DNA from: a virus
IMG/VR virus record: IMGVR_UViG_3300045988_143356
Direction: 5' to 3' (one strand)
DNA length: 64,000 nt
Shown: positions 3,370 to 63,932 of the stretch, piece by piece
How the letters are laid out: each line of letters begins with the position of its first letter
How positions within the stretch are numbered: the stretch's first letter is position 1
Made by a program: the position numbers and the translations under genes
The notes under the pieces: generated by a model
Told to the model about the DNA's origin: nothing
Database searches by the model: none
What the model saw: the letters and a program-made list of their open reading frames with translations, nothing else

Positions 3370-4821
3370 ATGGACTGGAGATTCATAGAGGACCGCCTCG
3401 TCGGGGTCCAGAAGCAGGCGGGCACGCTCGTCGGCCTGGGCGCGAGCGACGAGCGCGTGAACAAGCGGACGGAGGCCGGGCTGTGCAAGGTGTTCCGGCG
3501 TATGCTGTGCGGCGTGGAGGGCGACAGTCCCGGTGGGATGATGCTCGCCGACGAGGACGGGCAGCTTTACGGGTACAACGGCAGGTGGTACGAGCTGGTG
3601 ACGGAGGAGGCGCTGCTCGAGCTGGTGATCCGTGTGATGGAGCGTCTCGACGTGGGGATAGTTTACCAGACGGGTTCGGCGAAGGCGGCGCGCGACTACT
3701 GCGTGAACGCGCTTGTCGGGGATTCGCGGTGCAGGTTCGTGCCGGACCGGCGGTGGGTGTGCTTCACGAACGGGGTGTACGACGTGCGGGAGGGGCGGCT
3801 GCTGGGTTTCGGGCCGGAGTACGTGACGGACATGGTGATGGACTACGCGTTCGACGCGGAGGCGCGGTCGCGTCTGTGGGACAGTGTGCTGGCGCGGACG
3901 GTCCCGGATCCTGGGATGCGGGCGGCCTTCCGGCAGTTCTGCGGCTGCATGCTGGCGGACCGGCGGGAGTACACGATAGAGTACATCACGTTCGTGGTCG
4001 GCGAGGGGCAGAACGGCAAGAGCGTGATATGCAAGGCGGTGGTGAACACGCTGGGCAGGCGGGTGGCGAGCAGCTACAACCCGGAGCAGCTGTTCCGGAG
4101 CGCGCAGCGGGACTACCACCTTGCGGACGTGAACGGGAAGGTGGTGAACTACTGCGACGACGTGTCGAACAAGGACTTCTCCGGGGGGGACTTCAAGATG
4201 TTCGTGTCGGGGGCGCCGTTCACGGGGCGGCATCCGTACTCCAGGCGTCCGACAAGGGTGGACAAGGTGCCTCTGATGCTGTGCTGCGCGAACAAGATAC
4301 CGCCGACGACGGACGACTCGGAGGGGTATTTCAGAAGGTTCCTGGTCATATTGGCGCCGAACAGGGTCGATGACCGCGACAAGGACCCGCAGCTTGTGTC
4401 GAAGCTGGCTGCGCCGGATGTGAAGGCGGCGATATTCGACTGGATGCTGGAGGGGTACCGCGAGTTCGTGGCGAACGGGGGGAAGATAGACGTGCCGCAG
4501 TCTGTGCGGGATGTCGTGGAGGAGATGAAGGCGGGCGCGAACTCGCTGCGGAGGTGGCTGGACACGGAGGGCTATGTGGCGGCGGTCCCGCGGCAGAGGA
4601 GCGGCGAGGGCTGGCGGCCTTTGAAGGAGTGGGTGCAGGAGTACATCAACTATTGCAGGGACTGGGGCGAGGTGCCGAGGTCGAGGAGCTCGGTGACGGA
4701 CATGTTCGCGAAGATGGGCGCGGCGAAGGTCAGAAGGGGCGACGGGATGTGGTACTACCTGGAGCGGAGGGTGGAGCTTCCGGAGGAGGAAAAGGATGTG
4801 ATGGCGGATCTGCCTTTTTGA
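3370..4821 (+). CDS. D5/P4-family primase-helicase (SF3 NTPase)
   Basis: Walker A VVGEGQNGKSV, YCDDV (Walker B-like), FTGRHPYSRRP...LMLCCANKIPPTTDDSEGYFRRFLV typical of P4-type primase C-terminal domain; ATG 3370 preferred to track start 3142. Confidence 0.8.
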   Translation: MDWRFIEDRLVGVQKQAGTLVGLGASDERVNKRTEAGLCKVFRRMLCGVEGDSPGGMMLADEDGQLYGYNGRWYELVTEEALLELVIRVMERLDVGIVYQTGSAKAARDYCVNALVGDSRCRFVPDRRWVCFTNGVYDVREGRLLGFGPEYVTDMVMDYAFDAEARSRLWDSVLARTVPDPGMRAAFRQFCGCMLADRREYTIEYITFVVGEGQNGKSVICKAVVNTLGRRVASSYNPEQLFRSAQRDYHLADVNGKVVNYCDDVSNKDFSGGDFKMFVSGAPFTGRHPYSRRPTRVDKVPLMLCCANKIPPTTDDSEGYFRRFLVILAPNRVDDRDKDPQLVSKLAAPDVKAAIFDWMLEGYREFVANGGKIDVPQSVRDVVEEMKAGANSLRRWLDTEGYVAAVPRQRSGEGWRPLKEWVQEYINYCRDWGEVPRSRSSVTDMFAKMGAAKVRRGDGMWYYLERRVELPEEEKDVMADLPF

Positions 4822-4847: not shown

Positions 4848-5366
4848 ATGAAAAAAAAGCAAATCAATGATGTGCCGGCGGATGTGTCGGCTAAGATGAA
4901 GGAGCTGGAGGAGCTCGCGGAGAGGTACGGGGTGTCGATGTTCGCAATGGCGTGCACAGGCGAGGTCTTGGCGCACTTCATGACCGGCGACTGGGCTCCG
5001 ATCGTGGTTGGGCTTGTGACGATGGGGCGGAGGTATGGTTCCGTCCGCGGCATTGTTTCCGCGGCGGCGCGCATCCTGAACGGGGACCTCACCGACGATT
5101 TCGAGAGGGTGACGCGGGAGATGCGCGGGACGTGGAAGGCGAAGAACGCCGACTACGGGAGCAGCTTCGACGACGGCGTGGACCGCTTCGGCCTCGTGTC
5201 GGCTGCGGTGCGTATATGCGACAAGGCGAACAGGTTCGCGAGCCTTGCCGACGGTAAGAAGGCCAATGTCAAGGGGGAGGCGTTGCGTGACACGCTTATG
5301 GACCTGGCGAATTACGCGGTGATGACGGTGATGCGTCTGGACCAAGACAAGAAAGGCGATGAGTAA
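4848..5366 (+). CDS. DUF1599-like helical protein (nucleotide-modification-associated family)
   Basis: WKAKNADYGSSFDD...GLVSAAVRICDKANRFASL...LRDTLMDLANYAVM resembles DUF1599 as remembered; pattern-based only. Confidence 0.5.
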   Translation: MKKKQINDVPADVSAKMKELEELAERYGVSMFAMACTGEVLAHFMTGDWAPIVVGLVTMGRRYGSVRGIVSAAARILNGDLTDDFERVTREMRGTWKAKNADYGSSFDDGVDRFGLVSAAVRICDKANRFASLADGKKANVKGEALRDTLMDLANYAVMTVMRLDQDKKGDE

Positions 5367-6297
5367 GGACGGTTTCAGGTTCGACTACGATCCTCTGGCG
5401 GCCTTGGCGAACTGTCCGAAGCTGCTGGGGATGGAGCTTGTGCCGAGGGGTAACGGTCTCCAGGGCGGGTATTACCTGAACGGGGACAGGCATCCGTACC
5501 GCAGGGACAAGCTCAAGGTCTTCGTGGGCCGGGGCAGCGTGTGGGTCAGCGAGGAGGGCGGCAGGTGCGTGTCCCTCACGCAGTGGCTTCGCGAGTTCGG
5601 CGGGGCGGAGACCTACCGCGACGCGGTGCGGATGATCAACGGCGAGCCCCAGTCGGTGGACTGGAACCGGGAGTTCCGGAGGATAGTGTCGCCGGATGTG
5701 AAGTACGTGCCGAAGGATGTCCTTGAGGCGGCGAGGGCGTATGACCTCGGAAGGTGCCCTCTTTTCCGCTGGATGTGCGGGCTTTTCCCGGAGGCGGATG
5801 TCCGCGGGGTGTGGGGGCGTTACAACGTGACCACGGACTCGAAGGGGAACGCCGTTTTCTGGTTCACGGACTCGGCCGGGCGGGTGCTGTTCGACAAGCG
5901 CATGGCGTACGGCGAGGACGGGCACCGGCTGAGGGACTTCTTCCCCGGCAGGAAGTACCGTGTCGGCGACGGGTACACGGGGAGGTGCTATTTCGGGGCG
6001 CATCTGGTCGATCAGGGGCGCAAGGTCTATGTCTGCGAGAGCGAGAAGACGTGCCTTCTGGTCGCGCTGGCCTATCCGGGTCGCCAGTGCGTGGCGACGG
6101 GCGGCAAGGGCAACCTGCGGGACGTGGACGCCAACACAGTGCTGCTTCCGGACATGGACGCGAGGTTTGAATGGCAGGAGAAAGGCGAGATATGGCCCTG
6201 GTGGGAGAAGTGGGGAGTCAAGGAAATCCCGGATAAAGGCGACATCGGGGACATGATAGTCTGGAAAAGGGTTCGTGACTTGAACGTAAAAGGTTAA
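5359..6297 (+). CDS. Toprim-domain primase-like protein
   Basis: VYVCESEKTCLLVA (Toprim Glu) and LLPDMDA (DxD) motifs; follows the helicase module. Confidence 0.55.
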   Translation: MSKDGFRFDYDPLAALANCPKLLGMELVPRGNGLQGGYYLNGDRHPYRRDKLKVFVGRGSVWVSEEGGRCVSLTQWLREFGGAETYRDAVRMINGEPQSVDWNREFRRIVSPDVKYVPKDVLEAARAYDLGRCPLFRWMCGLFPEADVRGVWGRYNVTTDSKGNAVFWFTDSAGRVLFDKRMAYGEDGHRLRDFFPGRKYRVGDGYTGRCYFGAHLVDQGRKVYVCESEKTCLLVALAYPGRQCVATGGKGNLRDVDANTVLLPDMDARFEWQEKGEIWPWWEKWGVKEIPDKGDIGDMIVWKRVRDLNVKG

Positions 6298-6380
6298 AAT
6301 TCGTGTTTTGGGCGCGTTTTTGCCTAAAACCAAGGAAATGTATATCTTTGGGGGCGAAACCCCGTTAAAACTAAAAAAAA

Positions 6381-6890
6381 ATGAAAATTTGGGACAGGTT
6401 CGTGAGGCTCTGGTGCCTCAATGTCATGAACCCGGTCGTGGTCAGCGGCGAGAAGGGCGGGTTCAGGTATGTTTTCCGCCGCTACACGCTGGAGCTGCGG
6501 ACGGTGAGCGGCAACTGGCGGATGAGGGTGACGGCGTGCGAGCATCCGTGGGCGTATCTGCGGGCGAGCGTCGAGCAGGGGAGGGAGGACAACGTGTTCG
6601 GGTTCGCGCACGTGCTGTACTACCTGACGATGACGATGACGACCGACCAGCGGCTTGTGGACGAGGTGCAGAAGGCGCTCGTGGACTACGAGACGCGGCT
6701 GGCGGAGGGGGAGAAGTCCGGGGAGGACCCGGAGGAAGAGAAGGCCGCCATGGAGGAGGTCAAGGGCGTGCAGGAGTACGTCGAGATGGGCGCGAGGGAG
6801 CGGAGGAAGTACGAGCGGGATGTGAACCGGCGATTTCGGAAGGCGGCGGAGAAGGTGAGGTCGGCACGGAATTTGAAGGGTAAGGATTAA
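6381..6890 (+). CDS. hypothetical protein
   Basis: 169-aa ORF, ATG preceded by an A-run; acidic/basic helical C-terminus. Confidence 0.55.
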   Translation: MKIWDRFVRLWCLNVMNPVVVSGEKGGFRYVFRRYTLELRTVSGNWRMRVTACEHPWAYLRASVEQGREDNVFGFAHVLYYLTMTMTTDQRLVDEVQKALVDYETRLAEGEKSGEDPEEEKAAMEEVKGVQEYVEMGARERRKYERDVNRRFRKAAEKVRSARNLKGKD

Positions 6891-6900
6891 AACAAAAAAA

Positions 6901-7536
6901 ATGGAAGAAGGAATTTTTTACAAGCGCGGCTCGAAGAGCGATTACGCCGGGGTGGATATGTTGCCTAACGGGAAAGACATTCCTCGTCTGGTAATAACTG
7001 ACATCCGCTTTCACGAGGCTTTGATGATTAACGGTCGTCAAGATAAGGAGCGTTGGACGGCGCATTTTGCACCTAATCCGTTCTGTAACAAGCCTTTACT
7101 CTTAAATTCGACGAACAAATCAAGGATAGCGAAGGCTTTCTGGAATACGCCGGTGGAGGATGGAACAGCGTGTGCCGGAAGGATAAATCTGTTGCATAAC
7201 ATCCCGGTCCGTCTTACGGCGGAGGTCGCTCGTGACGTGGCTAATGGAGGTGAGACTCTTGGTCTCCGCGTCAGCCGCTATCCGGCGGCCACCGAGGAGG
7301 AGATGCAGCAGTGGCTCGTCGAGAACGGCTACGCACAGGCGCCGGAGCCGGCGCCGGCGGCGAAAAAGGTTATCACCGAGGATAAGGTGGGTGTCATAGT
7401 CGAATGGGCGTTGAAGAACGGCCTTGACATGGCGGCGATAAAGGAGCGCTACGACTTCGAGAGCCAGACGGTCGAGGATGCGGTGGCTGACGGCATAGCC
7501 GCGAAGCCGCAGGAGAGTGACGATTTACCTGAGTAG
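6901..7536 (+). CDS. hypothetical protein, candidate recombination partner (annealing or ssDNA-binding protein) of the exonuclease
   Basis: Immediately upstream of the YqaJ-type exonuclease with a 2-nt gap; acidic C-terminus ...ESDDLPE; function inferred from position only. Confidence 0.5.
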   Translation: MEEGIFYKRGSKSDYAGVDMLPNGKDIPRLVITDIRFHEALMINGRQDKERWTAHFAPNPFCNKPLLLNSTNKSRIAKAFWNTPVEDGTACAGRINLLHNIPVRLTAEVARDVANGGETLGLRVSRYPAATEEEMQQWLVENGYAQAPEPAPAAKKVITEDKVGVIVEWALKNGLDMAAIKERYDFESQTVEDAVADGIAAKPQESDDLPE

Positions 7537-8300: not shown

Positions 8301-8517
8301 CTGTTACATCTGCATTGACGGTCGCCGGATGGGGCGTCTCCGGCAGGGCGAGGACGGCGAGATGAGGCTGTTCCGCATGCCGGGGTGCTCCATCGGCGTC
8401 TATTTCGAGATGCTGGGATGGTTGATGGATAACGAGGATAACATAGCATGGGATTCGGTCAAAGAAGAAGGCCCCCGGAGGCCGACAGGAAGCTGTACGC
8501 TTACAAGACGCCGCTGA
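8245..8517 (+). CDS. hypothetical protein (possibly the 5' part of the next gene)
   Basis: Track ORF; likely GTG start near 8287; overlaps 8448..9200 by 70 nt around a C5 run. Confidence 0.3.
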   Translation: MWTGSWSRLKKRGKVLLDNCYICIDGRRMGRLRQGEDGEMRLFRMPGCSIGVYFEMLGWLMDNEDNIAWDSVKEEGPRRPTGSCTLTRRR

Positions 8518-9200
8518 ACAGACGGAGCGCGCCTTACATAGTGCGTTTCTTCGACTACTGCTACAAGCGCGGTGTCTGGGACGCTTGCGACCACGGTGAC
8601 GACTACGAGGTGCGGAGCTTCGTGGAGGAGCATTCCGTGTCGTGGAGGTTCGCCGTGCTCGGCGAGCCTGGCGACCTTGACTGGGAGACCTGGCGCTTCC
8701 TTATGTACCGCTGGGCGAAGGAGCGCGGGATGAACGAGCTCGCGGAGTACTACATCTACGAGATAGTCCGTCAGAACCATCTGTGGTATTTCCTTCCGTA
8801 CTGCATGCGCTTCTATCTGAAAGGCATGGCAGACTGGCTGAAAAGGCCGGAGCCGGGCGGGATAGACCTGTTCATGTCCACGCCGAGGGAGCGGTGGGTC
8901 ACTGACGGGAGGCTGTCCGTCCGCATGGTCAACACGGACTACGTTTCGGACATGCACATGTTCGCCTTCGAGTACCGCAGGGTGCCGGAGGACGACCGCG
9001 CGTTCAGCATCATAGCGTTCGAGCAGTACGCCCGCGCCATACACGACCTGACAAGGAAGTGGCGGGGCAGGCAGCAGTTCACATATCAAGTCCGGAAGGA
9101 CCTGGAGGGGATCAAAAAGGAATCGTATGGAAGCGAAGAGTCAAGTATTAAACATGGACTGCCTGGAGTTCCTGAGGGAGCAGCCGGACAAGAGCTTTGA
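8448..9200 (+). CDS. hypothetical protein
   Basis: 250-aa ORF, Trp/Tyr-rich, no motif recognised; 3' end overlaps the methyltransferase start. Confidence 0.5.
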   Translation: MGFGQRRRPPEADRKLYAYKTPLNRRSAPYIVRFFDYCYKRGVWDACDHGDDYEVRSFVEEHSVSWRFAVLGEPGDLDWETWRFLMYRWAKERGMNELAEYYIYEIVRQNHLWYFLPYCMRFYLKGMADWLKRPEPGGIDLFMSTPRERWVTDGRLSVRMVNTDYVSDMHMFAFEYRRVPEDDRAFSIIAFEQYARAIHDLTRKWRGRQQFTYQVRKDLEGIKKESYGSEESSIKHGLPGVPEGAAGQEL

Positions 9201-9829
9201 CCTGGCGGTGGTCGATCCGCCTTACGGGGGAGCCAATGACCTCAGTATCAATGGGGGGGGGGCGTTTCGGCGAAAGGTTCGACCGCTACAAGAACGGGCG
9301 GGACATGGGCGACGAAGTACGGAAAAAAATCATAGGCTGGGACGTGGCACCCGGCGAGGAATATTTCAAGGAGCTTTTCCGTGTCTCGAAGAATCAGATA
9401 ATCTGGGGTGGGAACTATTTCTCTCTCCCGCCGACAAGGTGCTTCCTTGTCTGGCGCAAGCTGACCATATCCGAGAGTTTCACGATGGCGATGGCGGAGT
9501 ACGCGTGGACAAGCTTCAACGGCAACGCCAAGGTGTTCGAGTGCGCTCCGCAGGGCGCGTCGAAGGATCAGCGGTTCCACCCGACGCAGAAGCCCGTCGC
9601 GCTTTACACGTGGGTCTTCAAGCAGTTCGCCAAGCCGGGGGACAGGGTTCTGGACACGCATCTTGGGAGCGGATCGTCAAGGATAGCGGCGTACGGCCTG
9701 GACCTGGACTTCACCGGGATAGAGATAGACAAGGATTATTTCGACAAGTCGGTGGAGCGTTTCGAGCGCGTCTGTCACGGCGTGCAGGACATCGGCGGTC
9801 ACAAGGTGGAGCAGGGCAGCCTGTTTTAG
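9127..9829 (+). CDS. DNA N6-adenine/N4-cytosine methyltransferase, reading frame broken at a G10 tract
   Basis: N-terminal frame: NMDCLEFLREQPDKSFDLAVVDPPYG (motif IV). C-terminal frame (track 9197..9829): NQIIWGGNYF, HPTQKP, DRVLDTHLGSGSS (motif I). The two frames differ by +1 and meet at the G run 9253-9262. Confidence 0.75.
9253..9262 (+). repeat. homopolymeric G10 tract inside the methyltransferase gene
   Basis: Counted codon by codon: aat ggg ggg ggg gcg in the N-terminal frame, atg ggg ggg ggg cgt in the C-terminal frame; G9 or G12 would fuse the frames. Confidence 0.9.
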
Positions 9830-9830
9830 G

Positions 9831-10334
9831 ATGGGGCTGGGCATAGACATAGCCGACAAGGCGCCGAAGCTTTTCCGCACGGGGCACGAGAATCCAGGGG
9901 AGTTCCGCCTGGATTATATCCTGCTTCCCTACGGCCTCTTCTACGAGAAGACTTCCTGCGTGTTGAAGGCCAAGAGGGGGGACCGGATAAGGCTTTTCAA
10001 CGGCCCCGACTGCCGCATAATCAAGGCCGTGGTGGTCGAGGGTGACCTGTGCGATTTGCTTTGCCGGATGCGCTATGGCGTGGCCTGGCGCATAGCGTAC
10101 CAGAAGTGGCTTCTGAACGCCCGCATGGAGGGTTTCGGCAAGGATGTATTCTTTGAGGACAAGTGTATTTTTGTGGTTTTTGACAGGGATGACAACAAGG
10201 AGGAACAGAACACCGCGGCCGTCGCGCTGCGTGGAAACAAAAGTGTACCGGGTGCAGGCAAGAGGCGCGGACGCCCTGCTTCTGCCAAGAAACGCCGTGG
10301 AAGACGCGTTCTGGACAAGAGGGGCAGAGGTTGA
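9831..10334 (+). CDS. hypothetical protein with AT-hook-like basic tail
   Basis: 167-aa ORF; C-terminus GKRRGRPASAKKRRGRR (RGRP core). Confidence 0.5.
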   Translation: MGLGIDIADKAPKLFRTGHENPGEFRLDYILLPYGLFYEKTSCVLKAKRGDRIRLFNGPDCRIIKAVVVEGDLCDLLCRMRYGVAWRIAYQKWLLNARMEGFGKDVFFEDKCIFVVFDRDDNKEEQNTAAVALRGNKSVPGAGKRRGRPASAKKRRGRRVLDKRGRG

Positions 10335-10542
10335 CGCGCTTTTCGAGACGCTTGACGGCAAGAGGTCGCGCCCGCGTTTCATCGCGGCCTGGAACGACAA
10401 GGGAGGCGAGTACGACGGCGAGCTGGATGATGTTTGCCGGCAGCGCTTCGGGTTCCCGTTCGTGAACATCCGGTCGATGTGGAACTGTCGGCTGGGTTTT
10501 GTCGATGACTACTGGTTTTTGGTGGAGTTGGAAGAGGCATGA
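10297..10542 (+). CDS. hypothetical protein (start uncertain)
   Basis: 3' part of track ORF 10144..10542; GTG at 10297 is the first plausible start limiting overlap with 9831..10334; ATGA-type junction with the helicase start. Confidence 0.3.
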   Translation: MEDAFWTRGAEVDALFETLDGKRSRPRFIAAWNDKGGEYDGELDDVCRQRFGFPFVNIRSMWNCRLGFVDDYWFLVELEEA

Positions 10543-13571: not shown

Positions 13572-14348
13572 ATGACAATAAATGGTAAGGTTCACTGTTT
13601 CTTCGAGCAAAGCGGGACTTTCAAGAACGAGTTCAAGAAATTAGGGATAGATGCGGTGGATGTGGACATCCAAAACAATTTCGGCCAGACCGACCATGTT
13701 GTCGATTTGTTCGCCGAGATTGAAACCGCTTATGGGGGGGGGCAATCAAAGGTTTGGGATTCGATTACTTGCGATGATTTGATTATGGCGTTTTTCCCTT
13801 GCATATATTTTTCAGCATTATCGCAAATGGCTTTTTCATTTGGATGTGTAAATTATAGAAAGTTGTCAGACAAGGAAAAGGCTGATGCGATACTTGAAAG
13901 AAGCCATAACAGAGAATATTTTTTCGGGTTGGCGGTAAAGATGTTGACAGTGGCGAAAATGCGTGGATTGAGATTGATAATGGAGAACCCTTGGGCAGAA
14001 CAAACTTTTTTGAAGGCAAACTTCGTGATGCCTCCGACATTAGTGGATAACAATCGTATGCTGCGAGGTGATTACTTTGTGAAGCCTACGGCTTATTGGT
14101 TTATTAACTGCAAACCAACATACGGATTGACAGAACAAAAAGACAAAAAAGCAAAAACGATAAACAAGGCTAAGCCCGGAATCAGAGCTGGGATATGCTC
14201 CGAGGAGCGCAGCATGATAAGCCCCGACTACGCGAGGAACTTCATCTGCGACTTCATCCTTGGGAAAGAGCAGAAAGGGACACAACTTAATTTGTTTGAA
14301 AATGAGCAGGACAAACATACTGATAAACGATTCAGGCACCGACTTTAG
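13572..14348 (+). CDS. divergent C5-cytosine DNA methyltransferase-like protein
   Basis: FFEQSGTF (motif I-like), FFPCIYFS (PC motif IV-like), IMENPW (ENV motif VI-like); contains an in-frame G9 tract. Confidence 0.5.
   Translation: MTINGKVHCFFEQSGTFKNEFKKLGIDAVDVDIQNNFGQTDHVVDLFAEIETAYGGGQSKVWDSITCDDLIMAFFPCIYFSALSQMAFSFGCVNYRKLSDKEKADAILERSHNREYFFGLAVKMLTVAKMRGLRLIMENPWAEQTFLKANFVMPPTLVDNNRMLRGDYFVKPTAYWFINCKPTYGLTEQKDKKAKTINKAKPGIRAGICSEERSMISPDYARNFICDFILGKEQKGTQLNLFENEQDKHTDKRFRHRL
13734..13742 (+). repeat. homopolymeric G9 tract inside the second methyltransferase-like gene
   Basis: tat ggg ggg ggg caa = YGGGQ, in frame as given. Confidence 0.9.
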
Positions 14349-15204: not shown

Positions 15205-15236
15205 AAGGGCCGCCGTGAGGCGTCCCTTTCTTTTTA
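15205..15236. terminator. bidirectional rho-independent terminator
   Basis: AAGGGCCGCC-GTGA-GGCGTCCCTT stem (one mismatch) with GNRA loop, T-run on both strands, between convergent genes. Confidence 0.6.
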
Positions 15237-16766
15237 GCTCTGAATCGACTTTCCCGAAGCGTTGTTGTCAACCGGCGTCTTTTTCGGATTGGTCCCTTCC
15301 GTGACCGCCGTTGTGTTGTACTTTGCGGGGATTGAACTTTTAATTTCTAATTCATACTCCCATTCCTTCTGAATAGTCTCGTAGTCGTCGATGTGCGCCG
15401 TGCCGAGGTCCTCCATGGCGGCCTCCCTTGACTTTATCCTTGCGTACACTTGGTCGCACTCGTTTTTGACCAGCTCAGAGACGTTCTGCGGAAGCCAGAT
15501 GTTCTGCCCGACTGACACCTTGAGGCTCTCGTACCCGGCGATGTCGCCCTGAACCTTGCCGACAAGCGCCTTGAAGACGTTGACCATCTTCTTCACACCC
15601 TTGAAGAAGTACGGCCATGTGTTCTTGCACCACTGAATCTCCGGCGCGAAAAGAATCTTTATCGTCGTGCTGGAGTCCGATCCGGCCTTGAGGATGTCCG
15701 GCTCGACGAAGACCGACATTGTAGTCCTTACGATGTTGTTCCACAGCGTGTTGTGGTGTATGTCGGCGATGTTGCTCGCATCAGGCGGTGCGAGGAACTT
15801 GCCGTCGGCGTTCCGTAGGGAGTCGGCCGTGCCCTTCACGCCGATGGTCTTTCCCGCCATCTTGGAAGGCGGCAGGTTGACGATCTTCTCCGACTTCAGG
15901 AAGAGAATCGGAAAAGCGCTGTTTTTCAGCTCCTCGCCGAGGTACGAGCTTGCGTTCTCCAGTGACTCGATGCTGAGCTGCGCCGGTCCGGTAGGGATGT
16001 CGTCTATACGGAAATAAGTGCACTGGCATCTTCCGGCACCGGCCTGGTTCGCCTTGCGCAGTATCAGCGTGTAGCCGTCCTCGCTGCGCTCCCTCCCCAA
16101 AGTTTCCTCTTCCGGCAACTGCATCCATGTCTCCACGGACTCGCAAGTGAAGATGTCCACGGCGTCGCGGTTCTCGTACTTGTACTTCCTCGCCACGCAC
16201 TCGTGACCCTCCGCGTCAAGGAAAGGGAACAGCGTCGAGCCTTCCTCGTAGCCGTACACCTCGTACTCTATGCCGTCCTCGGTCTGGTACAGATAGATGG
16301 CTCCGTCTCCGGTGCGGAACACGCTTTTGACAAGAGCCGTCCACGCCGCCTCCTTCAAGCCGGTCATATCCATCTGCGAGCGGAGCACCTCGAAGCGTTC
16401 CTTGTCTTTCGTCTCGTTGGCCATCCAGAAGCCGTCTGACGCGAAGTGCGAGATCTTCTTGCCGATGATGCACTCCTGCAAGCCAAGGGCGACCGTCTCT
16501 ACGTCGTCGTAGCCGGTTATCCTCCACTTCGTCTTGCCGTTGGCGTCCTTCTCGTCCGTCGGGCCGTAGATGGCTCGCTTCGACATATACGGCGAGTTGA
16601 TGTTGTGCGCCGCCGGGGAAATCTCGTTGAGGAAATCGTCCTGGGTCATGAGCACCTGGTCACAGCCCCTCCCCGGCTTCATGTTCTGTCCTGCGGCGGT
16701 GTCCATCGCCACACGTCTTGTCCACTGCTTCTTCTTCGCAGGGTTGATGTAACTTGATACGTTCAT
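15234..16766 (-). CDS. portal protein
   Basis: 510-aa ORF directly downstream of the large terminase with a 4-nt overlap; size and position typical of SPP1-type portals. Confidence 0.7.
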   Translation of the reverse strand: MNVSSYINPAKKKQWTRRVAMDTAAGQNMKPGRGCDQVLMTQDDFLNEISPAAHNINSPYMSKRAIYGPTDEKDANGKTKWRITGYDDVETVALGLQECIIGKKISHFASDGFWMANETKDKERFEVLRSQMDMTGLKEAAWTALVKSVFRTGDGAIYLYQTEDGIEYEVYGYEEGSTLFPFLDAEGHECVARKYKYENRDAVDIFTCESVETWMQLPEEETLGRERSEDGYTLILRKANQAGAGRCQCTYFRIDDIPTGPAQLSIESLENASSYLGEELKNSAFPILFLKSEKIVNLPPSKMAGKTIGVKGTADSLRNADGKFLAPPDASNIADIHHNTLWNNIVRTTMSVFVEPDILKAGSDSSTTIKILFAPEIQWCKNTWPYFFKGVKKMVNVFKALVGKVQGDIAGYESLKVSVGQNIWLPQNVSELVKNECDQVYARIKSREAAMEDLGTAHIDDYETIQKEWEYELEIKSSIPAKYNTTAVTEGTNPKKTPVDNNASGKSIQS

Positions 16767-18499
16767 ATCTTAATCCAAATTGCGTTTCTTCCGTTGCTGT
16801 CGTTGTAAAGTCCATAATACGCGTCATCCTCCACCTCCGGTGACGGCTGCTTCTTCGGACGGGCGTCAAGGTCTGGAAGCATACGAAGATACATAGTATC
16901 TACGAGGTTCGGCGAGGCGTGGAATTTGGCCTTGTATTCATCTTTCGTGCGGTAGTATATTTTCTTGTTTCGTTGCAATGTTCGGAAAGTCTCGATTTCA
17001 TCGTAGAGGACGTCAATAAGCCGTCTTGTCTGCCCTTTCTTGCCGTATGGTATGACCATATTCAAGTCGAGCGTTGTCGATATTTTATTTGTTTTCAAGG
17101 CGACTTCCAGTTTTCCCATCAACTGCGAACGCAAGTTGAAGTATTGCTCGAACTCCACCTTGTTACCGCTTTCGTCGTATTCGGGGAGAGCCGTTTTGTT
17201 CGCTGTCACTGGCCAACCGTTTGTGTAAGCCTTCAAATAAAAACCTATTCCGGTTGCGTCAAAGATAAAATTATGTGTAGGTATCTCGTATTTCCGCAAC
17301 ATTCTGTCAATCCAATCCACAAGTTCCTTTGCGTCACCACGGAAGAACTCTATACCGATAATCGTGTGGCCTTTCCAAGCGATGAACGGGTTGTCATCGG
17401 AATTGACATTGCCGCCGGAAACGTCCATAGTTCCCCATCTGGTTTCGTCATCATCATAAGGGTTGGTCTGAATGTCCCGTATCATTTGTCTTGACACGTT
17501 CGTTGACTCATTCTCGATTTCGCCGAAATACGCCTCGGCAAGTACCGCTCTTTGCTTGCCGCCGACATTGTGTAGATTCGCCACTGACTGTCCCTTTGTG
17601 GAGGCCACAAGTTTTCTGTTGTCCGCGGCCGTTCCGGTGATGAGCTGAAAAGACTTGACCATATCGGTCTCTTTCAATCCGGCTCGTCTGTCAGCGTCAC
17701 TGATATGAATATCGGCGGCTTGGGCGACCTCTTCTTTAGTATCTCCCCAAATGACTGATTCTGGAGTATCTCCTTTTATATAGAAATACCGGATTTTCCC
17801 TTGCATTTCCGGCTTGATATACCAAGTTGTCGTGTCAATGTACCCACCACAGACAAGAAAATCGGTAGTCCAGTGCGAATGACTTGGGTTAAAGGTGCAA
17901 AGGAATTGTGGTATCACGCCAGAGTTGTCTCTGTTTCTGGAAAATATATAACTGAACATTCTGAAACTTGATACCGCGGAAAGCTCGTCGATTGCCATAC
18001 GGCTACTTTGTACCTTCTTAATCGCCTCGATGAAATCGTCCCATTGTGAATCCGGATTGTAGTTCATACCTATCATCTGGAAGGAATTATTCCATTCAGG
18101 CCAAAAGAATGTAGGTGTTTCGCTTGCCGTCACTTCGCAGTCAGAGAACTGTCCCAAAGTTAGCAAAGCGTCACGGAACATACTCGATCCTTTGGCGGAA
18201 TCCATTTTGCGGACATTGATAAGTTTCGCCGTATAATTGGGTATGCCGATCCCCTTTAAGAAACTCAAAAACAATGCGAAACTCTTCCCGCTCGTAGCTT
18301 GACCACAAGCAAATACGAGGTTCGCTTCTGAACGGACCACCGCCTCCTGCATCCCTACTTGTGGGCAAAAGTCCACGCCGTCTCGTAGAACAAAACTGCC
18401 TATCTTATCAAATCCCTTGGACTTGATGGTAGGCAGTTCCCGGCTTATGTGTTCATATCTGTCTGGAAACTTTGCGTCTTTGTTTTTAAGTCTAAACAT
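16763..18499 (-). CDS. terL: terminase large subunit
   Basis: Walker A ACGQATSGKSFAL, 578 aa, followed by portal. Confidence 0.85.
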   Translation of the reverse strand: MFRLKNKDAKFPDRYEHISRELPTIKSKGFDKIGSFVLRDGVDFCPQVGMQEAVVRSEANLVFACGQATSGKSFALFLSFLKGIGIPNYTAKLINVRKMDSAKGSSMFRDALLTLGQFSDCEVTASETPTFFWPEWNNSFQMIGMNYNPDSQWDDFIEAIKKVQSSRMAIDELSAVSSFRMFSYIFSRNRDNSGVIPQFLCTFNPSHSHWTTDFLVCGGYIDTTTWYIKPEMQGKIRYFYIKGDTPESVIWGDTKEEVAQAADIHISDADRRAGLKETDMVKSFQLITGTAADNRKLVASTKGQSVANLHNVGGKQRAVLAEAYFGEIENESTNVSRQMIRDIQTNPYDDDETRWGTMDVSGGNVNSDDNPFIAWKGHTIIGIEFFRGDAKELVDWIDRMLRKYEIPTHNFIFDATGIGFYLKAYTNGWPVTANKTALPEYDESGNKVEFEQYFNLRSQLMGKLEVALKTNKISTTLDLNMVIPYGKKGQTRRLIDVLYDEIETFRTLQRNKKIYYRTKDEYKAKFHASPNLVDTMYLRMLPDLDARPKKQPSPEVEDDAYYGLYNDSNGRNAIWIKI

Positions 18500-20082: not shown

Positions 20083-21300
20083 ATGGCAAACAAGTACGCA
20101 AAAGGTTTCTACACCCTTATGTCGGAGGCGGGCATCCTGTCCTCCAAGAGTTTTGGACTCTACATCAACGATGTGGTCGGCTTCAACAACATCCAGAAGC
20201 TTGACCTTGACGGCTTCACCTGGGACGAGTATTCCTCCCTGACGTTCGACTTCAAGGATCTTGTCATGTCGAACCGCGTGAAGGTGATGGCCACCTATAC
20301 GGACAAGGACTCCGAGGCTATTCCGTTCGGTACGGAGGGCTTCACAGAGACAAGCGGCGTGGTTCCTACCATGAAGGCCCGCTTCATCTGGGACTCCGAC
20401 GACTACCGCAAGTACCTCGACGCTGTGCGCAACCTTGACTTCCAGAACAAGACCGCGAAGCAGTACGCCCTTGACCTTCTCTTCAACGGAATCAAGGACA
20501 TCCAGAGCGCCCACGAGCTTTCAATGACCTACCAGCGCGATCAGATAGTTTCCGGCAGGGAGCTGTCACTTGACGCGAACAACAATCCAAGGGGCATCAA
20601 GGGGCTCGTGTTCAAGTCAGCCGTTCCTAAGGCCAACGTGACCACCGTCGCCAAGGCGAAGAGATGGTTTAACAACGCGACCGACAAGAACGCGACCACC
20701 GCGAACGCGGACGCTGATCCGGTAGGAGACATGAAGGCTGTTGTACGCGCCATGAAGCGCAAGGGCTACATGGACATCGTGGTCGAGGCCGACTACATCT
20801 CCTTCCTTGAGGACATGGATCATCCGAAGTGGCGCACCGCCATGGGTTACCAGATGCGCCCGGACCTCGTACTCGCCGCAAGCAACGACGCCAACGCCCT
20901 TGCAGTGGGCAACGCCGCCGGTGACGACGAGCTCGTGGCCCTCTTCGCTAAGATTATCGGCGTTCCTGCGGCCAACGTGCATCTGCGCAAGGGTCTCGCC
21001 GGAGTCGAGGTTCTCGAAGGCAAGGGACCTGACGCCAAGCTCGTGAGGAAGACCCAGAGGACTTTCAAGGCGAACACCTATGTGTTCTATCCTGCCGGTC
21101 CTATCGGAACAATCAAGAGCACCTTGGCCCTCACGCCGGACGACAGCTTCATCTACGCCAAGTTCTTTGGCGACAGGGGACTTATCCAGTACGAGTTCGA
21201 CGCCAAGGCGAGGACTCAGGACTGGTGGTCAGAGCTGAACGCGCTTTGCGTTCCTTCCCGTCCGCAGGAGATGTACTATCTCATCACTTACACAGACTAA
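20083..21300 (+). CDS. major capsid protein
   Basis: 405 aa, strong AGGAGG-like site upstream, position after scaffold/decoration genes. Confidence 0.7.
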   Translation: MANKYAKGFYTLMSEAGILSSKSFGLYINDVVGFNNIQKLDLDGFTWDEYSSLTFDFKDLVMSNRVKVMATYTDKDSEAIPFGTEGFTETSGVVPTMKARFIWDSDDYRKYLDAVRNLDFQNKTAKQYALDLLFNGIKDIQSAHELSMTYQRDQIVSGRELSLDANNNPRGIKGLVFKSAVPKANVTTVAKAKRWFNNATDKNATTANADADPVGDMKAVVRAMKRKGYMDIVVEADYISFLEDMDHPKWRTAMGYQMRPDLVLAASNDANALAVGNAAGDDELVALFAKIIGVPAANVHLRKGLAGVEVLEGKGPDAKLVRKTQRTFKANTYVFYPAGPIGTIKSTLALTPDDSFIYAKFFGDRGLIQYEFDAKARTQDWWSELNALCVPSRPQEMYYLITYTD

Positions 21301-24309: not shown

Positions 24310-24608
24310 GCTCTGCCTTCGAGTCCTCGACGCACAACGAGCGAATCAAGAACGTTTACGGCAACTTCGGTTTCTGGTCGTGGCTGCGCTATTGGTACCT
24401 TGACTCGGCGAACCTCGTGACGATGTGGCTGATAGACAAGGGATATTACGATTACGACTACGAGAAGGAGGGTAAGCTGATAACGGTGTCGGGAACTCGC
24501 AAGTCAAAGACTGATGTTAACAATATTCTTCGTAACTTTGGACTGCCTGTTGAAGGCGAGGATTTACAATCATACATAATCAAGGAGGAACAAAAAAATG
24601 GCTGTTGA
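23782..24608 (+). CDS. tail assembly chaperone GT-like frameshift fusion
   Basis: -1 frame extension of about 103 codons (…GRQVGSAFESSTHNER…IKEEQKNGC) ends 11 nt inside the tape measure gene; track ORF 24417..24608 is its tail. Confidence 0.6.
24291..24297 (+). other. -1 programmed ribosomal frameshift heptamer A_AAA_AAG
   Basis: Zero-frame codons AAA(24292) AAG(24295) preceded by A24291; the -1 frame stays open from here to 24608. Confidence 0.65.
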
Positions 24609-27600
24609 GATACCGGTAGTCATAGACATAGACAAGGCGTTTGACGACGCTATCAAGAAGCTGCCGTCGGCGATGCGCCCGTTGAAGAACACGATAGAGC
24701 AGCTTTCGCAGGAGCTGAACATAGCGCGTCAGATTATGGCGGAGGCTCCGATAGACAGCAAGGACTGGCAGGACGCGGCGAATATGGTAAAGGGGTTGTC
24801 GCAGTCTTTGGAAGTCGCATCCGACAAGATGCGGAGATTGGTAGCCAACGATGGCAGCATCAAGCAGATGACCGCCACCTTGGCCTCGCTGAATCGTAGG
24901 TGGGAAGAGATGGGATATATGCAGAAGTTCCAGAACGCTTCGCAGTTGTCAAGCGAGGCGGAGGCTTTGTATGCTGAATATAAAAGAATAACAAAGTCTT
25001 TGCAGCAGAACAAGACCCTTACACAGCTTTGGGCGGAAGAGCAGGCAAAAGCGGCGAAAGCCGCAGAGCGGCAGGCCGCTGCCACCAAAGCTGCGCAGGA
25101 CAAGGCATTCATGATGTCCTCCCCGGCGAACACGCTTGCGGGTTTGCGCAAACAGGAAACTCTACTGTCAGCCGCGATGGGGCAGGTTACTATTGGATCC
25201 GCAGCGTTCAGGGATTATGAGAACCGCCTGACAGCAGTGCGCAACAAGATAAAGTCAGCCACAAAGGAGCAGAAAACATATAACACTGCGTTGTCCGAAA
25301 GCCATTCGCGCCTTGGCACGCTGATAAAAAGTACCGTGGCGTACTTCTCTTTGCGCCAGGTTACAAATTTCCTGCGTAATATCCGTGCTGTCACCGCCGA
25401 GTTCGAGATGCAGCGTGTTGCCTTGGGAGGTATCATCCAGGATAGCGACAAGGCAAGCGAACTCTTCAAGCAGATAAAGGCCGCTGCAATCAAGTCGCCT
25501 TTTGAAATCAAGGATTTGGTCTCATACACGAAGCAGTTGTCCGCGTACCGGATAGAGACAGACCAGCTTTTTGAGACCACGCAGCGTCTGGCCGATGTGT
25601 CTTCCGGTCTTGGCGTGGATATGGGGCGTATCATACTCGCCTACGGCCAGGTCCGCGCTGCTTCGGTGCTTCGTGGAACCGAGTTGAGACAATTTACCGA
25701 GGCCGGGATTCCATTGGTGGAGCTTTTGGCAGAAAAATTCTCGCAGCTTTCCGGGCGAATGGTCAACACCGCCGAGGTGTTCGACCTTATATCGAAGCGT
25801 GCTGTGTCGTTCAAGATGATCAAGGAGATATTTGAGGATATGACCAACGCTGGCGGTATGTTCTATAAGATGCAGGAGAAACAGTCCGAGACGTTGCAGG
25901 GTAAGTGGATGAACTTGAAGGATTCCGTGTCCATTATGTATGATGAGATAGGAAACACGAAAGATATTCATACGGCTATGGAATGGATGCTATCTTTCGC
26001 GACCGCGTTGATGAATAACTGGCGCACCGTGGGGAAGGTGCTTGGCGGCGTGATAGCGTCTATGACGGCTTATAAAATAGCGGTGACAAATACCACGATA
26101 GCCATTAATGCGCAGACAGCCGCCAATGGCATAGCTCAAAAGATGGAATGGAGTCGCCAAATAGGTATGAGCAAGACCATATCACTCATATTCGGCGAGA
26201 CGGCTGCCAGGAAGATTCAGATAGCCTTGATGCGTACCTACGTCGCAGTCAAAGCCAAGGAGGTAGCGGCCACGAACCTTTTCACAAAGGCATTCTATAA
26301 GATGACCGCCGCCTTGCTGAAAAATCCTTACGCGCTTGCGATAGCGGGAATCACGGCTTTGGGCTACGGGTTGTATCAGTTGATGACAAATGCCAACAAG
26401 GCAAAAATAAGTGTTGATGATTTTGAGAAATCCTTGGAATCTTTCAAGCAGTCCAAGTCGCACGCCAAGGATATTGATGATTTATGCGCGGCTTATGACG
26501 AGCTTAATAAAAAGACGGACAAGACCGCCGAGGAGCAGAAAAAGCTCGAGCGCATAACTAAAGATTTAGCAAAGGCATATCCGTCCGCTGTCGCTGGTGT
26601 AGATGCGCAGACGGGGGCATTGAAGATTAACACCAAGGCTATCAAAAGCAATAACGAAGCTGTAAAAGAGGCTATCAAATTGGCGTTGACGCAAGATAAG
26701 ACAAGTGCGGAGGCAGAACTTGCCAAAAGGGAAGCGGAACGCGACAAGATAGCAAGAGAGTTGGAACGTGGTAAAGTAACACGTTTTGGGCCTTACAATA
26801 CGCAATATGAAGGTGATTTAACCGAGGAAGAGCGAGCTGCCAGAGGCCGTCGTATCACCGAGTTGGAAGCCGAAATTAAGCAATATTCAAACTTGGTTGA
26901 AGATGCGGAAAAACAATTGGAGGGGTATTCCGAAGAAGTGGGCGTTTGGCTTGACTTCTTTGATGACAAATGGCGCTTATCCCTCACCGGCTATTCATAT
27001 ACCTTGCAGAGCACCGGTCAGCGGGTCCGTGCCTTCACCAAAGAACAGATAGAGAATTTCACCTCGCTGAAAGACGCACTGGACGCCGCAGCGAAGGGCT
27101 ACAAGGAGCAGAAGGAGGCGGTCGAGTTCTATACGCACGCATACAACGCTGCCACGGGCGGCAAGAAAGACCAGATGAAGGCGGCTCTCGCTGACGCGCA
27201 GGCGCAGCTTGCCATGTACACGAAGATACTGACCGACAATGATGCCATGTATCTGACAGCGCAGAAAGGCAAGGGCGGAGCATCAAGTGACCCGTTTATC
27301 ATCCAGATAGAGAATCGCATCAAGTTCATGAAAGACTTCCAGAAGGGTTACGAGTCTCTTTTGAAGTATATGTCTTCCTCGGCTGCCTTGCAGAAAGAGG
27401 GCAGCATCATGCAGGGACGTGGTGTCGCCTTGGGCATAGACCCGTCTGAGCAGAAGCGTGCCGCCACTGACCTTTCTGGATGGCTCGAAGATTTGAAAAA
27501 GACGGTGTTCGCAGAGGCGCAAAAGAAGGGTGCTAAAGGTGATATTCTTAATTTTCTCGGTTTGAAAATCAACTCCGGTGTGCTCCGTGAGTATCAGTCC

Positions 27601-57230: not shown

Positions 57231-57292
57231 ATTATCTATTTTTTTTAATTTTTCAAATCTACGATCGCTCTGTTAACATGTCAAATCCTATT

Positions 57293-62654: not shown

Positions 62655-62909
62655 CTAAACGGTATATTCCCAGTTCGTCATTGCTGGCGGATCATCGTCC
62701 TCTATCGAATCCGACATAAAGACAACCATGTCCACTGTGACACCTACAAAATCCATGCCTTTGTAGTCATCGAAGCGGTAGTCCAGGACAAGTTTCCTTG
62801 CCTCCGCCGCGTCATTTGCCCAACAGTCGCACTCTATCGGCCTGTTGTAAACCTCGCCATTCCAGTCCTCGTGCTGGACAGTGGCGCAAACTTTGAATAA
62901 CTTAATCAT
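62655..62909 (-). CDS. hypothetical protein
   Basis: 84-aa ORF ending 14 nt before the tRNA-like element. Confidence 0.5.
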   Translation of the reverse strand: MIKLFKVCATVQHEDWNGEVYNRPIECDCWANDAAEARKLVLDYRFDDYKGMDFVGVTVDMVVFMSDSIEDDDPPAMTNWEYTV

Positions 62910-63687
62910 TGCTTAACTGAATTATCTTTATCCACTTGCTTAATATCCCCTTGCTCAAGGGGCATCCGTTGCGCGTCCCGTACTTCTCCGGATGCTTCCG
63001 GTAAAGCTCCTGCGCGTCCGCAAGGATGTCAACCCTTGCCCTGTGCTTGAACACCTGCAACTCCACCCAGGCGAAGAGCGGCGACTCCTTGCGCCATTCA
63101 ACGGCCTTGGCGGCGGCCGCCTCATTGGCGGCCACTATCGCCTGCCTTGGCATACATCCCCTCGGATTGCCAAGTTTCTTCACCCAGTGCCCAGACTTGG
63201 AGAAGAACCCTCCGTTCTCCGCTATCTGGCGCTGACGTTCCGCCAAGGCAAGACGTGTGTTTATCTGTATCATCTGCGCCTGACGCTCCCACACCGCGAA
63301 CATTATCGTCAGCACGAACCTGTCACAGGTAGGAAGGTCGCAGATGACCACGTTACGCTCGCCCATGGCATCTATGATATCCAACGCCTCGGACACGGAT
63401 CTCAGACGGTCGCTCTTTGCTATGCACAGGACATAATCAGAAGCCTTGCAGTACCGTATGGCCTCCCATAACTGACCGCACTCCTTCAACTTCGTCCCTG
63501 AATGGACGTCAGTGAAAACCGCCACCGGATCCTTTGCCATGAACATCTTCGCTATCGTCAACTGCGCCTCCAGGCCAAGGCCGGAGGCCTCCTGCTCCTG
63601 CGTGGATACCCTGCGCCACAAGACATAAGGCCTTGAATCGCCTATCGGCTTTATCTCTATCTTTTTTCTCTTTTTCCCTGTCCACAT
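62902..63687 (-). CDS. small serine recombinase (resolvase/invertase family)
   Basis: YVLWRRVSTQEQEASGLGLEAQ (catalytic Ser), TDVHSGTK, CIAKSDRLRSV, E-helix WERQAQMIQINTRLAL; ATG 63687 preferred to track start 63747. Confidence 0.8.
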   Translation of the reverse strand: MWTGKKRKKIEIKPIGDSRPYVLWRRVSTQEQEASGLGLEAQLTIAKMFMAKDPVAVFTDVHSGTKLKECGQLWEAIRYCKASDYVLCIAKSDRLRSVSEALDIIDAMGERNVVICDLPTCDRFVLTIMFAVWERQAQMIQINTRLALAERQRQIAENGGFFSKSGHWVKKLGNPRGCMPRQAIVAANEAAAAKAVEWRKESPLFAWVELQVFKHRARVDILADAQELYRKHPEKYGTRNGCPLSKGILSKWIKIIQLSND

Positions 63688-63932
63688 AACCGCAAAGACT
63701 CCAAAGTTGCCGGAAACCAATACGCATCGTGATCGAAGAACACGCAACGCCCGTACTTGTCGGGCAGCTGAAACGCAAGCACCTCATACGGCCCGAACGT
63801 GATTCCTGACGAGTTGGTGAACATCACCTTGTCGCCGATACTAAGGTCAACACCCGGAAGACTCTCGCAGAACTCTTCTTCCCTATACTGTCTCTTCCAT
63901 TCCTGGAACTCTTTCTTGTAACTTTTCCCCAT
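63657..63932 (-). CDS. hypothetical protein
   Basis: ATG 63932 (MGKSYKKEF…) in track ORF 63657..63959. Confidence 0.45.
   Translation of the reverse strand: MGKSYKKEFQEWKRQYREEEFCESLPGVDLSIGDKVMFTNSSGITFGPYEVLAFQLPDKYGRCVFFDHDAYWFPATLESLRLCGQGKREKR

Follow-up and report, generated by a model that had tools for sequence, protein, structure and literature searches.

A stretch of viral DNA of 64,000 nucleotides (nt), IMG/VR virus record IMGVR_UViG_3300045988_143356 and hereafter the window, carries a gene for a DNA methyltransferase (MTase) that is split by a run of ten G residues (Table 1). The original prediction, made from the sequence of the window, held that the DPPY-bearing part upstream of this run and the +1-frame remainder downstream of it belong to one beta-class N6A/N4C MTase, that the allele as given ends in a nonsense C terminus, that nine G would restore a single open reading frame (ORF), and that the gene is a candidate phase-variable (contingency) locus. 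This description was accurate in all the details that we checked, and it overlooked a run of seven A residues downstream of the G tract.

The letters of the sequence and its ORFs agree on the division of the gene. From the first ATG the frame upstream of the G tract reads MEAKSQVLNMDCLEFLREQPDKSFDLAVVDPPYGGANDLSINGGG, and a second ATG (9154) is the usual called start of the MTase in relatives. The C-terminal part lies in an ORF of the +1 frame (9197..9829), which reads ...GGGRFGERFDRYK...HPTQKP...DTHLGSGSS... and includes RFGERFDRYK. The allele in the window instead translates as MEAKSQ...VVDPPYGGANDLSINGGG, after which Arg-rich nonsense continues to the end of its ORF. Deleting one G produces a protein of 233 aa, as had been anticipated, and this reconstructed protein matches PF01555 (N6_N4_Mtase) with 52.9 bits against a cut-off of 26.7 and phrog_67 'DNA methyltransferase' at 9e-40. 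Among proteins of solved structure, CcrM and DpnA-type beta-class enzymes come closest to it, and both parts of the MTase align, as two blocks, to the CcrM structure 6pbd. The catalytic DPPY lies N-terminal of LGSGSS, which is the permutation of the beta class. By profile and motif order, the two halves are thus predicted to be a single beta-class N6A/N4C DNA MTase, and the in-frame (ON) forms of the gene would be expected to be enzymatically active.

Table 1. Positions in the window of the two MTase genes, their repeat tracts and other genes of the phage
Feature	Position	Strand	Remarks
Beta-class DNA MTase, N-terminal segment	9127..9252	+	Catalytic motif IV DPPY at 9214-9225
ATG at tract start	9251..9253	+	Formed by the AAT preceding the tract and its first G
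Poly-G tract	9253..9262	+	Exactly ten G; downstream gene thrown into +1 frame (OFF); G9 would be in frame
Linker between tracts	9263..9322	+	Tolerates either frame; maps to the loop with pLDDT below 50
Poly-A tract	9323..9329	+	A7, codons CGG AAA AAA ATC; 60 nt downstream of the G tract
MTase C-terminal 166 codons	9330..9829	+	IIGWDVAP...; HPTQKP 9578-9595; motif I LGSGSS 9662-9679; stop 9827-9829
ORF encoded by the G10/A7 allele	9127..9846	+	239 aa: 45 native residues and 194 nonsense codons
Second MTase-like gene	13572..14348	+	phrog_757 'DNA methyltransferase', 7e-22; in frame as given
Poly-G tract in second MTase-like gene	13734..13742	+	G9, TAT GGG GGG GGG CAA, in frame
Portal	15234-16766	-	
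Large terminase	16763-18499	-	
Major head protein	20083-21300		
Tape measure protein	24598-29832		1744 aa

Runs of this length are not expected from the composition of the window, which predicts 0.01-0.09 runs of at least ten G and 0.05-0.35 runs of at least nine G in 64 kb. Two runs of at least nine G are observed, both of them within MTase genes; a shorter run, G7, lies at 4183-4189. Codon choice points in the same direction: GGG is the least used Gly codon of this phage (16.5%), and of its 6 Gly-Gly-Gly tripeptides only the 2 in the MTase genes are encoded entirely by GGG. The original prediction had argued against coincidence from the ATG and the GGG codons found at both tracts. Both points are true of the window phage, in which all-GGG triplets are confined to the MTase genes, but the ATG is not a feature of the family. 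A general role of this ATG as a designed internal start was considered and rejected, since other clades have AGC, GAC, GGT or TCT at this place. In the G10/A7 state of the window, the ATG at the tract start is in frame with the C-terminal part (M-GGG-RFGERF...), and gene callers begin the truncated products of relatives at the equivalent ATG; it is a putative start codon.

We compared the locus with 15 close relatives, which share 88-97% nt identity over the gene and come from independent Illumina short-read assemblies (SPAdes, MEGAHIT and Logan). Searching with the protein gave full-length matches of about 90% identity together with many products of 192-210 aa that start at or just before the tract (MGGG..., MTSVSMGGG...), and the gene is therefore split at the same place in other assemblies. 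The out-of-frame relatives were chosen because their proteins looked truncated, so that the ratio of ON to OFF alleles in this set is biased. The original prediction would have been contradicted by orthologs lacking a homopolymer here and showing no variation in length, and the opposite was found: all 15 relatives keep the G tract, at G8, G9 or G10, with in-frame and out-of-frame alleles both present. The A tract is A7, A8 or A9, or is absent (Table 2). Since both tracts vary, the frame depends on their sum. The whole gene is in frame in 8 of the 16 sequences (the window and its 15 relatives); in a ninth, L200, the tracts preserve the frame. The G8/A8 alleles translate the 22 codons that separate the tracts in another frame (VSVEGSTATRTGGTWATKYGKK) and return to the original frame at the A tract.

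Table 2. Tract states in the window and its close relatives, and other repeats between DPPY and HPTQKP in the wider MTase family
State or repeat	Loci	Tracts
Out of frame	window	G10 / A7
Out of frame	L197	G10 / A9
Out of frame	L202	G10 / no A tract
Out of frame	L198, L199, L204, L205	G9 / A8
In frame	L201, L203	G8 / A8
In frame	L002, L084	G9 / no A tract
In frame	L001, L081-083	G9 / A7
In frame at tracts	L200	G9 / A7
Family, between DPPY and HPTQKP	L004, L021, L025, L029, L040, L056, L088, L090, L096, L118, L126, L140, L142, L171	(AG)n
Family, between DPPY and HPTQKP	L111, L139, L174	(AC)n
Family, between DPPY and HPTQKP	L026, L119, L134, L070, L175	C9-10

Several of these states recur. L204 and L205, from two samples, are identical over 4661 nt and are both G9/A8, and L198 and L199 are 99.94% identical and share their tract state, which indicates from the sequences compared that out-of-frame alleles are heritable. 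Compensating pairs of tract lengths are found in three clades, namely G8/A8 in the clade of the window, G9/A8 versus G10/A7 in a second and G7/A8 versus G8/A7 in a third. Random miscalls give neither matched pairs nor identical states in independent samples.

The part of the gene downstream of the tracts remains functional-looking in the broken alleles. All seven tract-broken alleles, the window included, keep an uninterrupted C-terminal ORF of 166 codons. Over these codons the pairwise ratio of nonsynonymous to synonymous substitution rates (dN/dS) is 0.074 for ON/ON, 0.088 for ON/OFF and 0.102 for OFF/OFF pairs, and between the window and L204, which are both OFF through different tracts, dS is 0.119 and dN 0.008. 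With dN/dS near 0.1, the broken alleles have therefore been mostly under protein-level constraint through their history. Such constraint would fit frequent switching or leaky expression of the OFF alleles, and does not fit decay.

The nonsense frame of the window allele is itself unusually open. It is free of stops across the rest of the gene and ends past the ATG of the next gene at 9831; an open off-frame over 9263-9846 has a probability of about 0.002 under shuffling of codon order, and it is shared by 9 of the 12 close relatives examined. A conserved overlapping gene was rejected as the explanation, as the L001/L081-083 clade has one stop in the off-frame and distant members have many. The openness may be due to chance, or to avoidance of polarity in the OFF state.

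A wider family of 196 homologous loci with 28-94% aa identity was assembled from viral, metagenome and genome collections; these loci are not phylogenetically independent, and all counts of family loci should be read accordingly. Repeat density was counted in 161 non-identical loci with about 1 Mb of flanking phage DNA. The first 200 nt past DPPY hold 1.99 runs of at least eight G per kb, compared with 0.07 per kb in the rest of the gene and 0.022 per kb in the flanks, so that the density after DPPY is about 90-fold that of flanking DNA. For runs of at least nine G, the corresponding values are 1.24, 0.014 and 0.011 per kb. Codon usage follows the same pattern. Gly-Gly-Gly in the loop of the protein after DPPY is encoded entirely by GGG in 21 of 96 cases (22%), when about 1% is expected, and all-GGG Gly-Gly makes up 79 of 333 cases there versus 6 of 137 in the core of the protein, the core figure being equal to expectation. 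The repeat is thus over-represented relative to both composition and codon usage.

From one family member to another the tracts vary in their offset and in the peptide that surrounds them (DPPYGSGGGEF, NGGGRFG, IGGGY...), and other repeats occupy the same loop in some members (Table 2), including (AG)6-16 read as 'ERERERE', (AC)8-21 read as 'THTHTH', and C9-10. This variety of positions and repeat types argues for several origins of repeats in the family. An unselected set of 154 unique loci was used to count genes in which DPPY and HPTQKP are in different frames. The out-of-frame fraction is 0.65 for loci with a dinucleotide repeat (11 of 17, near the two-thirds expected for random phase), 0.25 for G or C runs of at least nine, 0.30 for runs of eight, 0.25 for runs of seven and 0.07 for shorter runs (Fisher p = 1.5e-4), and these fractions are probably underestimates because retrieval favors intact genes. 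Clustering at 85% nt identity over the conserved core gave 116 clusters, 55 of them repeat-bearing. Two or more distinct linkers are present in 13 clusters, six of which hold both ON and OFF members differing in tract length. Five clusters besides the clade of the window show its pattern of length polymorphism; the control clusters, without a G or C run of seven or more or a dinucleotide repeat, are all ON (3 of 3). In one pair of loci, L030 and L153, the 4890 nt compared contain 17 substitutions and one indel, which is G10 versus G13. The family also has an example from a cultured lineage, in the Bacteroides phage LoVEphage (OY731444.1). Its MTase homolog is split at a C9 just past the WD motif (18366-18374 of the record, 1667-1675 of our locus L207) and is annotated as two ORFs, a 'hypothetical protein' and a 'DNA methyltransferase'. 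A second LoVEphage record, OY725593, likewise matches in two pieces.

The repeats fall in a particular part of the protein. Alignment of the family shows a hypervariable, indel-rich stretch between DPPYG and I-x-WD-x-P in an otherwise highly conserved protein. In an AlphaFold2 model of an in-frame relative (P0002), residues 25-65, which make up this loop, have predicted local distance difference test (pLDDT) values below 50, while most of the remaining fold is at about 75-96. The model thus places the repeats in what is probably a disordered loop just past the catalytic DPPY. In the window the ancestral frame of the linker gives RFGERFDRYKNGRDMGDEVR, and the frame that the in-frame G8/A8 relatives use gives (V)SAKGSTATRTGGTWATKYG. 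Two versions of the loop are common among the in-frame proteins of the family, ...GRxMGxEVRKKI... and ...RTGGxWxxKYGKKI..., and both come from the same stretch of DNA in frames offset by one base, an offset that the A tract takes up. Among 40 loci of the GRxMGxEVRKKI type, 39 retain the RTGGxWxxKYGKKI motif in the alternative frame, and the dual-coding linker (9263-9329 in the window) has an equivalent in about 75 family loci. From these alignments it appears that the loop tolerates both frames and that lineages have moved between them. We suggest, tentatively and as a proposal that may well prove wrong, that the G and A tracts form a conserved two-repeat cassette around a dual-coding loop, with three heritable states: OFF and two in-frame isoforms, whose loops would read ...RFGxRFDRYK..GRxMGxEVRKK and ...RTGGxWxxKYGKK. 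If the isoforms differ in activity or target preference, repeat slippage would diversify the DNA methylation pattern of gut phages beyond OFF switching, and would do so across the whole MTase family, which would have recruited G, C, A, (AG) and (AC) repeats independently of one another. The linker also offers a naturally occurring case of a protein loop that has stayed legible in either of two frames.

The second MTase-like gene bears on the same question. It was expected to carry a poly-G tract and does so, and the length of this tract varies: in L206 (protein P0182) it is G10, out of frame, and the gene is split there. A distant homolog (L073) has G8 at the same place, and close relatives have GGG at the site, or GEG or EG without a tract. 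The tract of the second gene is less widespread in its family than that of the first. PHROGs alone names this protein, for which no sequence match was found in Pfam, NCBIfam or PDB. Two further observations concern this gene. Its ORF has 258 aa in the window versus 247 aa in close relatives, which end in ...LFKNEQD, and the difference is an 11-residue C-terminal extension, KHTDKRFRHRL, at 14314-14348. In the distant phage L073, homologs of both MTase genes are adjacent (about 5236-5894 and 6001-6778) and both carry G runs, with G8 in the second-type gene and G12, out of frame, in the first-type gene.

A conserved and variable tract, coexisting ON and OFF alleles, compensation between tracts, purifying selection and a tract of varying length in the second gene all support the candidate contingency locus of the original prediction. 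The G tract and the A tract together probably constitute a hypermutable, repeat-driven contingency locus in a phage MTase family, a reading to which we assign a probability of roughly 0.7. The length of a repeat within the ORF sets the frame, G10 giving the +1 frame and G9 the original one. Slipped-strand mispairing during replication of the phage DNA would add or remove a base of a tract, at a frequency that established knowledge of contingency loci suggests is high, and the change would place the part responsible for target recognition and S-adenosylmethionine (AdoMet) binding in or out of frame with the DPPY part. The ON states would be G9/A7, or G8/A8 with the linker in the other frame, and the OFF states G10/A7, as in the window, or G9/A8. 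A phage lineage would in this way repeatedly yield methylating and non-methylating progeny, presumably by reversible switching within one population at an appreciable rate, and a second, independently switchable MTase gene would multiply the possible states. The likeliest selective reason is bet-hedging, in which methylation would be favored by ordinary restriction-modification and its absence by methylation-dependent (Type IV) restriction or by the cost of methylation.

Several observations weigh against such a locus, and some of them favor other explanations. The compensating alleles come from comparison of assemblies and show restoration of the frame over evolutionary time only, and the presence of identical OFF alleles in different samples shows that they are stably inherited, which speaks against switching at an extreme rate. 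Because slippage by itself can lengthen G runs, part of the enrichment may be mutational and not selected. The six relatives that came from unselected scans (L001, L002 and L081-084) are all G9 and in frame, and the exact product of the G10/A7 allele, looked up with three alternative starts, had no match in other public assemblies. These last two points would also be expected if the true tract of the window were G9, the commonest length in relatives, with the gene intact and the tenth G a homopolymer miscall in this record. Runs of ten G are error-prone on all sequencing platforms, and the original prediction had named a sequencing or assembly error as its main alternative. We regard such an error as conceivable for the window record though unlikely, and for the relatives the recurrent identical and compensating alleles contradict it. 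G10 is present in two other sub-lineages (L197 and L202), the same out-of-frame alleles recur in independent samples, and pairs such as G8/A8, G9/A8 and G7/A8 cannot be produced by random miscalls. Moreover, the highest out-of-frame fraction in the family belongs to dinucleotide repeats, which are not prone to homopolymer errors. Even if the window record were miscalled, the locus would still be hypermutable in the family.

Gradual loss of a dispensable MTase, with the homopolymers merely collecting the first lesions of a decaying pseudogene, would account for the many out-of-frame members of the family. Ordinary mutation can also remove the gene, because the frameshift of L200, the nearest relative by gene identity (97.3%, on a 68-kb contig), lies outside any repeat: a single A is inserted after AAGCCC at about 3445 (corresponding to about 9596 in the window), shifting the frame past HPTQKP. 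We nevertheless consider decay highly improbable, given that dN/dS is about 0.1 even for OFF/OFF pairs, that none of the seven tract-broken alleles has a second lesion in 166 codons, that frame-restoring second-site changes are found (G8/A8, and G9/A8 in another clade), and that the repeats are maintained at their 90-fold enrichment. Purifying selection on tract-broken alleles is also compatible with recoding, in which slippage during transcription, or a frameshift by the ribosome, at one of the two runs would express the out-of-frame alleles and tune the level of the protein or its mix of isoforms. RNA polymerase is known to slip on long A/T runs, A7 forms an A_AAA_AAA heptamer in one frame of the linker with a stop two codons later, a +1 slip on the A run in the frame of the window would rejoin the C-terminal frame, and the off-frame is open to the end of the gene. 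A programmed site should, however, keep one out-of-frame arrangement in its orthologs, and here half of the clade has the whole gene in frame and tracts have both lengthened and shortened; G runs are also less well documented as sites of slippage. We think recoding in place of switching rather improbable, and the two are not mutually exclusive, since recoding is compatible with switching at the level of DNA.

A contingency locus in a phage MTase has partial parallels in known systems. In phage T2, the alpha-glucosyltransferase gene agt contains an A9 run in which +/-1 frameshifts turn DNA modification off and on, as described in a 2025 preprint on contingency loci in T-even phages, agt among them (Gomez, Barrick & Waters, bioRxiv 2025, PMC12633550). 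The locus lets T2 evade a Type IV system and is read as bet-hedging between defenses against modified and unmodified DNA (PMC12633550). The likeness lies in a homopolymer within a phage gene for a DNA-modifying enzyme. The agt work, however, concerns a glucosyltransferase of a cultured coliphage, with experiments and measured reversion, whereas the MTase locus is known from comparative evidence in uncultured gut phages; the MTase differs further in having two coupled tracts around a frame-tolerant linker and a repeat conserved across a protein family. Campylobacter Fletchervirus phages carry polyG tracts of 7-11 G in ORFs that generate subpopulations (Sorensen et al., Cell Rep 2021, as cited in PMC12633550). 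According to that citation, these tracts are in receptor-binding proteins and alter host recognition, while the MTase tract concerns DNA modification. The nearest literal precedent comes from Bordetella phage BPP-1, in which a methylase gene carries a polyG tract that was 'not studied further' (Liu et al., J Bacteriol 2004, as cited in PMC12633550); the comparison is drawn from the citing sentence.

In bacteria, phase-variable methyltransferases and phasevarions (Type III mod and Type I hsd genes in Haemophilus, Neisseria, Moraxella and Helicobacter) are switched ON and OFF by slipped-strand mispairing at repeats within ORFs, and the type of repeat at a given place can differ from allele to allele (PMC13076061). 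The resemblance of the present MTase to these systems rests on its ORF repeats and their variety. Phasevarions are built from chromosomal genes of host-adapted pathogens, mostly of Type III or Type I, and regulate sets of genes, whereas the enzyme here is a small orphan of the beta class, Type II-like and encoded on phage genomes, with no res or hsd gene among its neighbors. Type II methyltransferases with polyG or AG repeats are present in H. pylori. The open-access literature that we searched contains no account of a family of phage MTases in which a repeat-bearing loop is conserved, tracts are coupled or a linker is read in two frames, and none of the papers found on gut phage discovery, Bacteroides methyltransferases or gut epigenetic phase variation describes this locus.

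Phase-variable methyltransferases are a textbook subject in bacterial pathogens, and repeat contingency loci in phages are a recent one, reported for receptor-binding proteins in 2021 and for agt and other T-even genes in the 2025 preprint. The distribution of repeats in this family suggests that uncultured gut phages widely and repeatedly apply repeat switching to their own anti-restriction methyltransferases. If this is true, the methylomes and host ranges of gut phages would be heterogeneous by design, and 'frameshifted' methyltransferase genes in viromes should not be thrown out as errors or pseudogenes. The locus would also provide a concrete model for bet-hedging between restriction-modification and methylation-dependent defenses.

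The window is a nearly whole tailed-phage genome (Table 1), in which the MTase gene is placed in the replication/recombination module next to genes for a YqaJ-like exonuclease, a helicase and a VRR-NUC-like nuclease. When positions 8400-10400 were searched by megablast, no cultured phage genome matched; the phage has no close cultured relative. The relatives come from human, pig and other gut metagenomes, and public runs and assemblies in which relatives are present include ERR13995158, SRR25448245, SRR25936300, ERR14760509, ERZ27280423, ERZ28657617, ERZ940974 and ERZ15610057. No tRNA genes were found in the window, and the matches of distant MTase homologs to metagenome-assembled genomes are spread over Bacteroidales, Clostridia and others, so that no host can be assigned.

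Some smaller features of the window and its relatives deserve mention. In three relatives an RRXRR/HNH endonuclease gene lies directly upstream of the MTase, after a 250-aa ORF (L197 1648-2916, L204 2188-2916 and L205 255-983), with an IS605 OrfB/TnpB-like gene also close by in L197. Neither of these genes is present in the window, so mobile nucleases come and go beside the MTase. An ORF at 62902-63747 on the minus strand matches phrog_125 'DNA invertase' (serine recombinase) at 1.7e-12, and its product could be an integrase or an inversion switch. Long A/T homopolymers are also present, mostly by ORF boundaries and in the left end of the window (T10 at 561-570, A10 at 1385-1394, A9 at 6373-6381, A8 at 4851-4858 and 6894-6901, and T8 at 1838-1845 and 57239-57246). 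The count of runs of at least seven A is near the expectation from composition, and that of runs of at least eight A is somewhat high, with 4 observed versus 1-2.5 expected.

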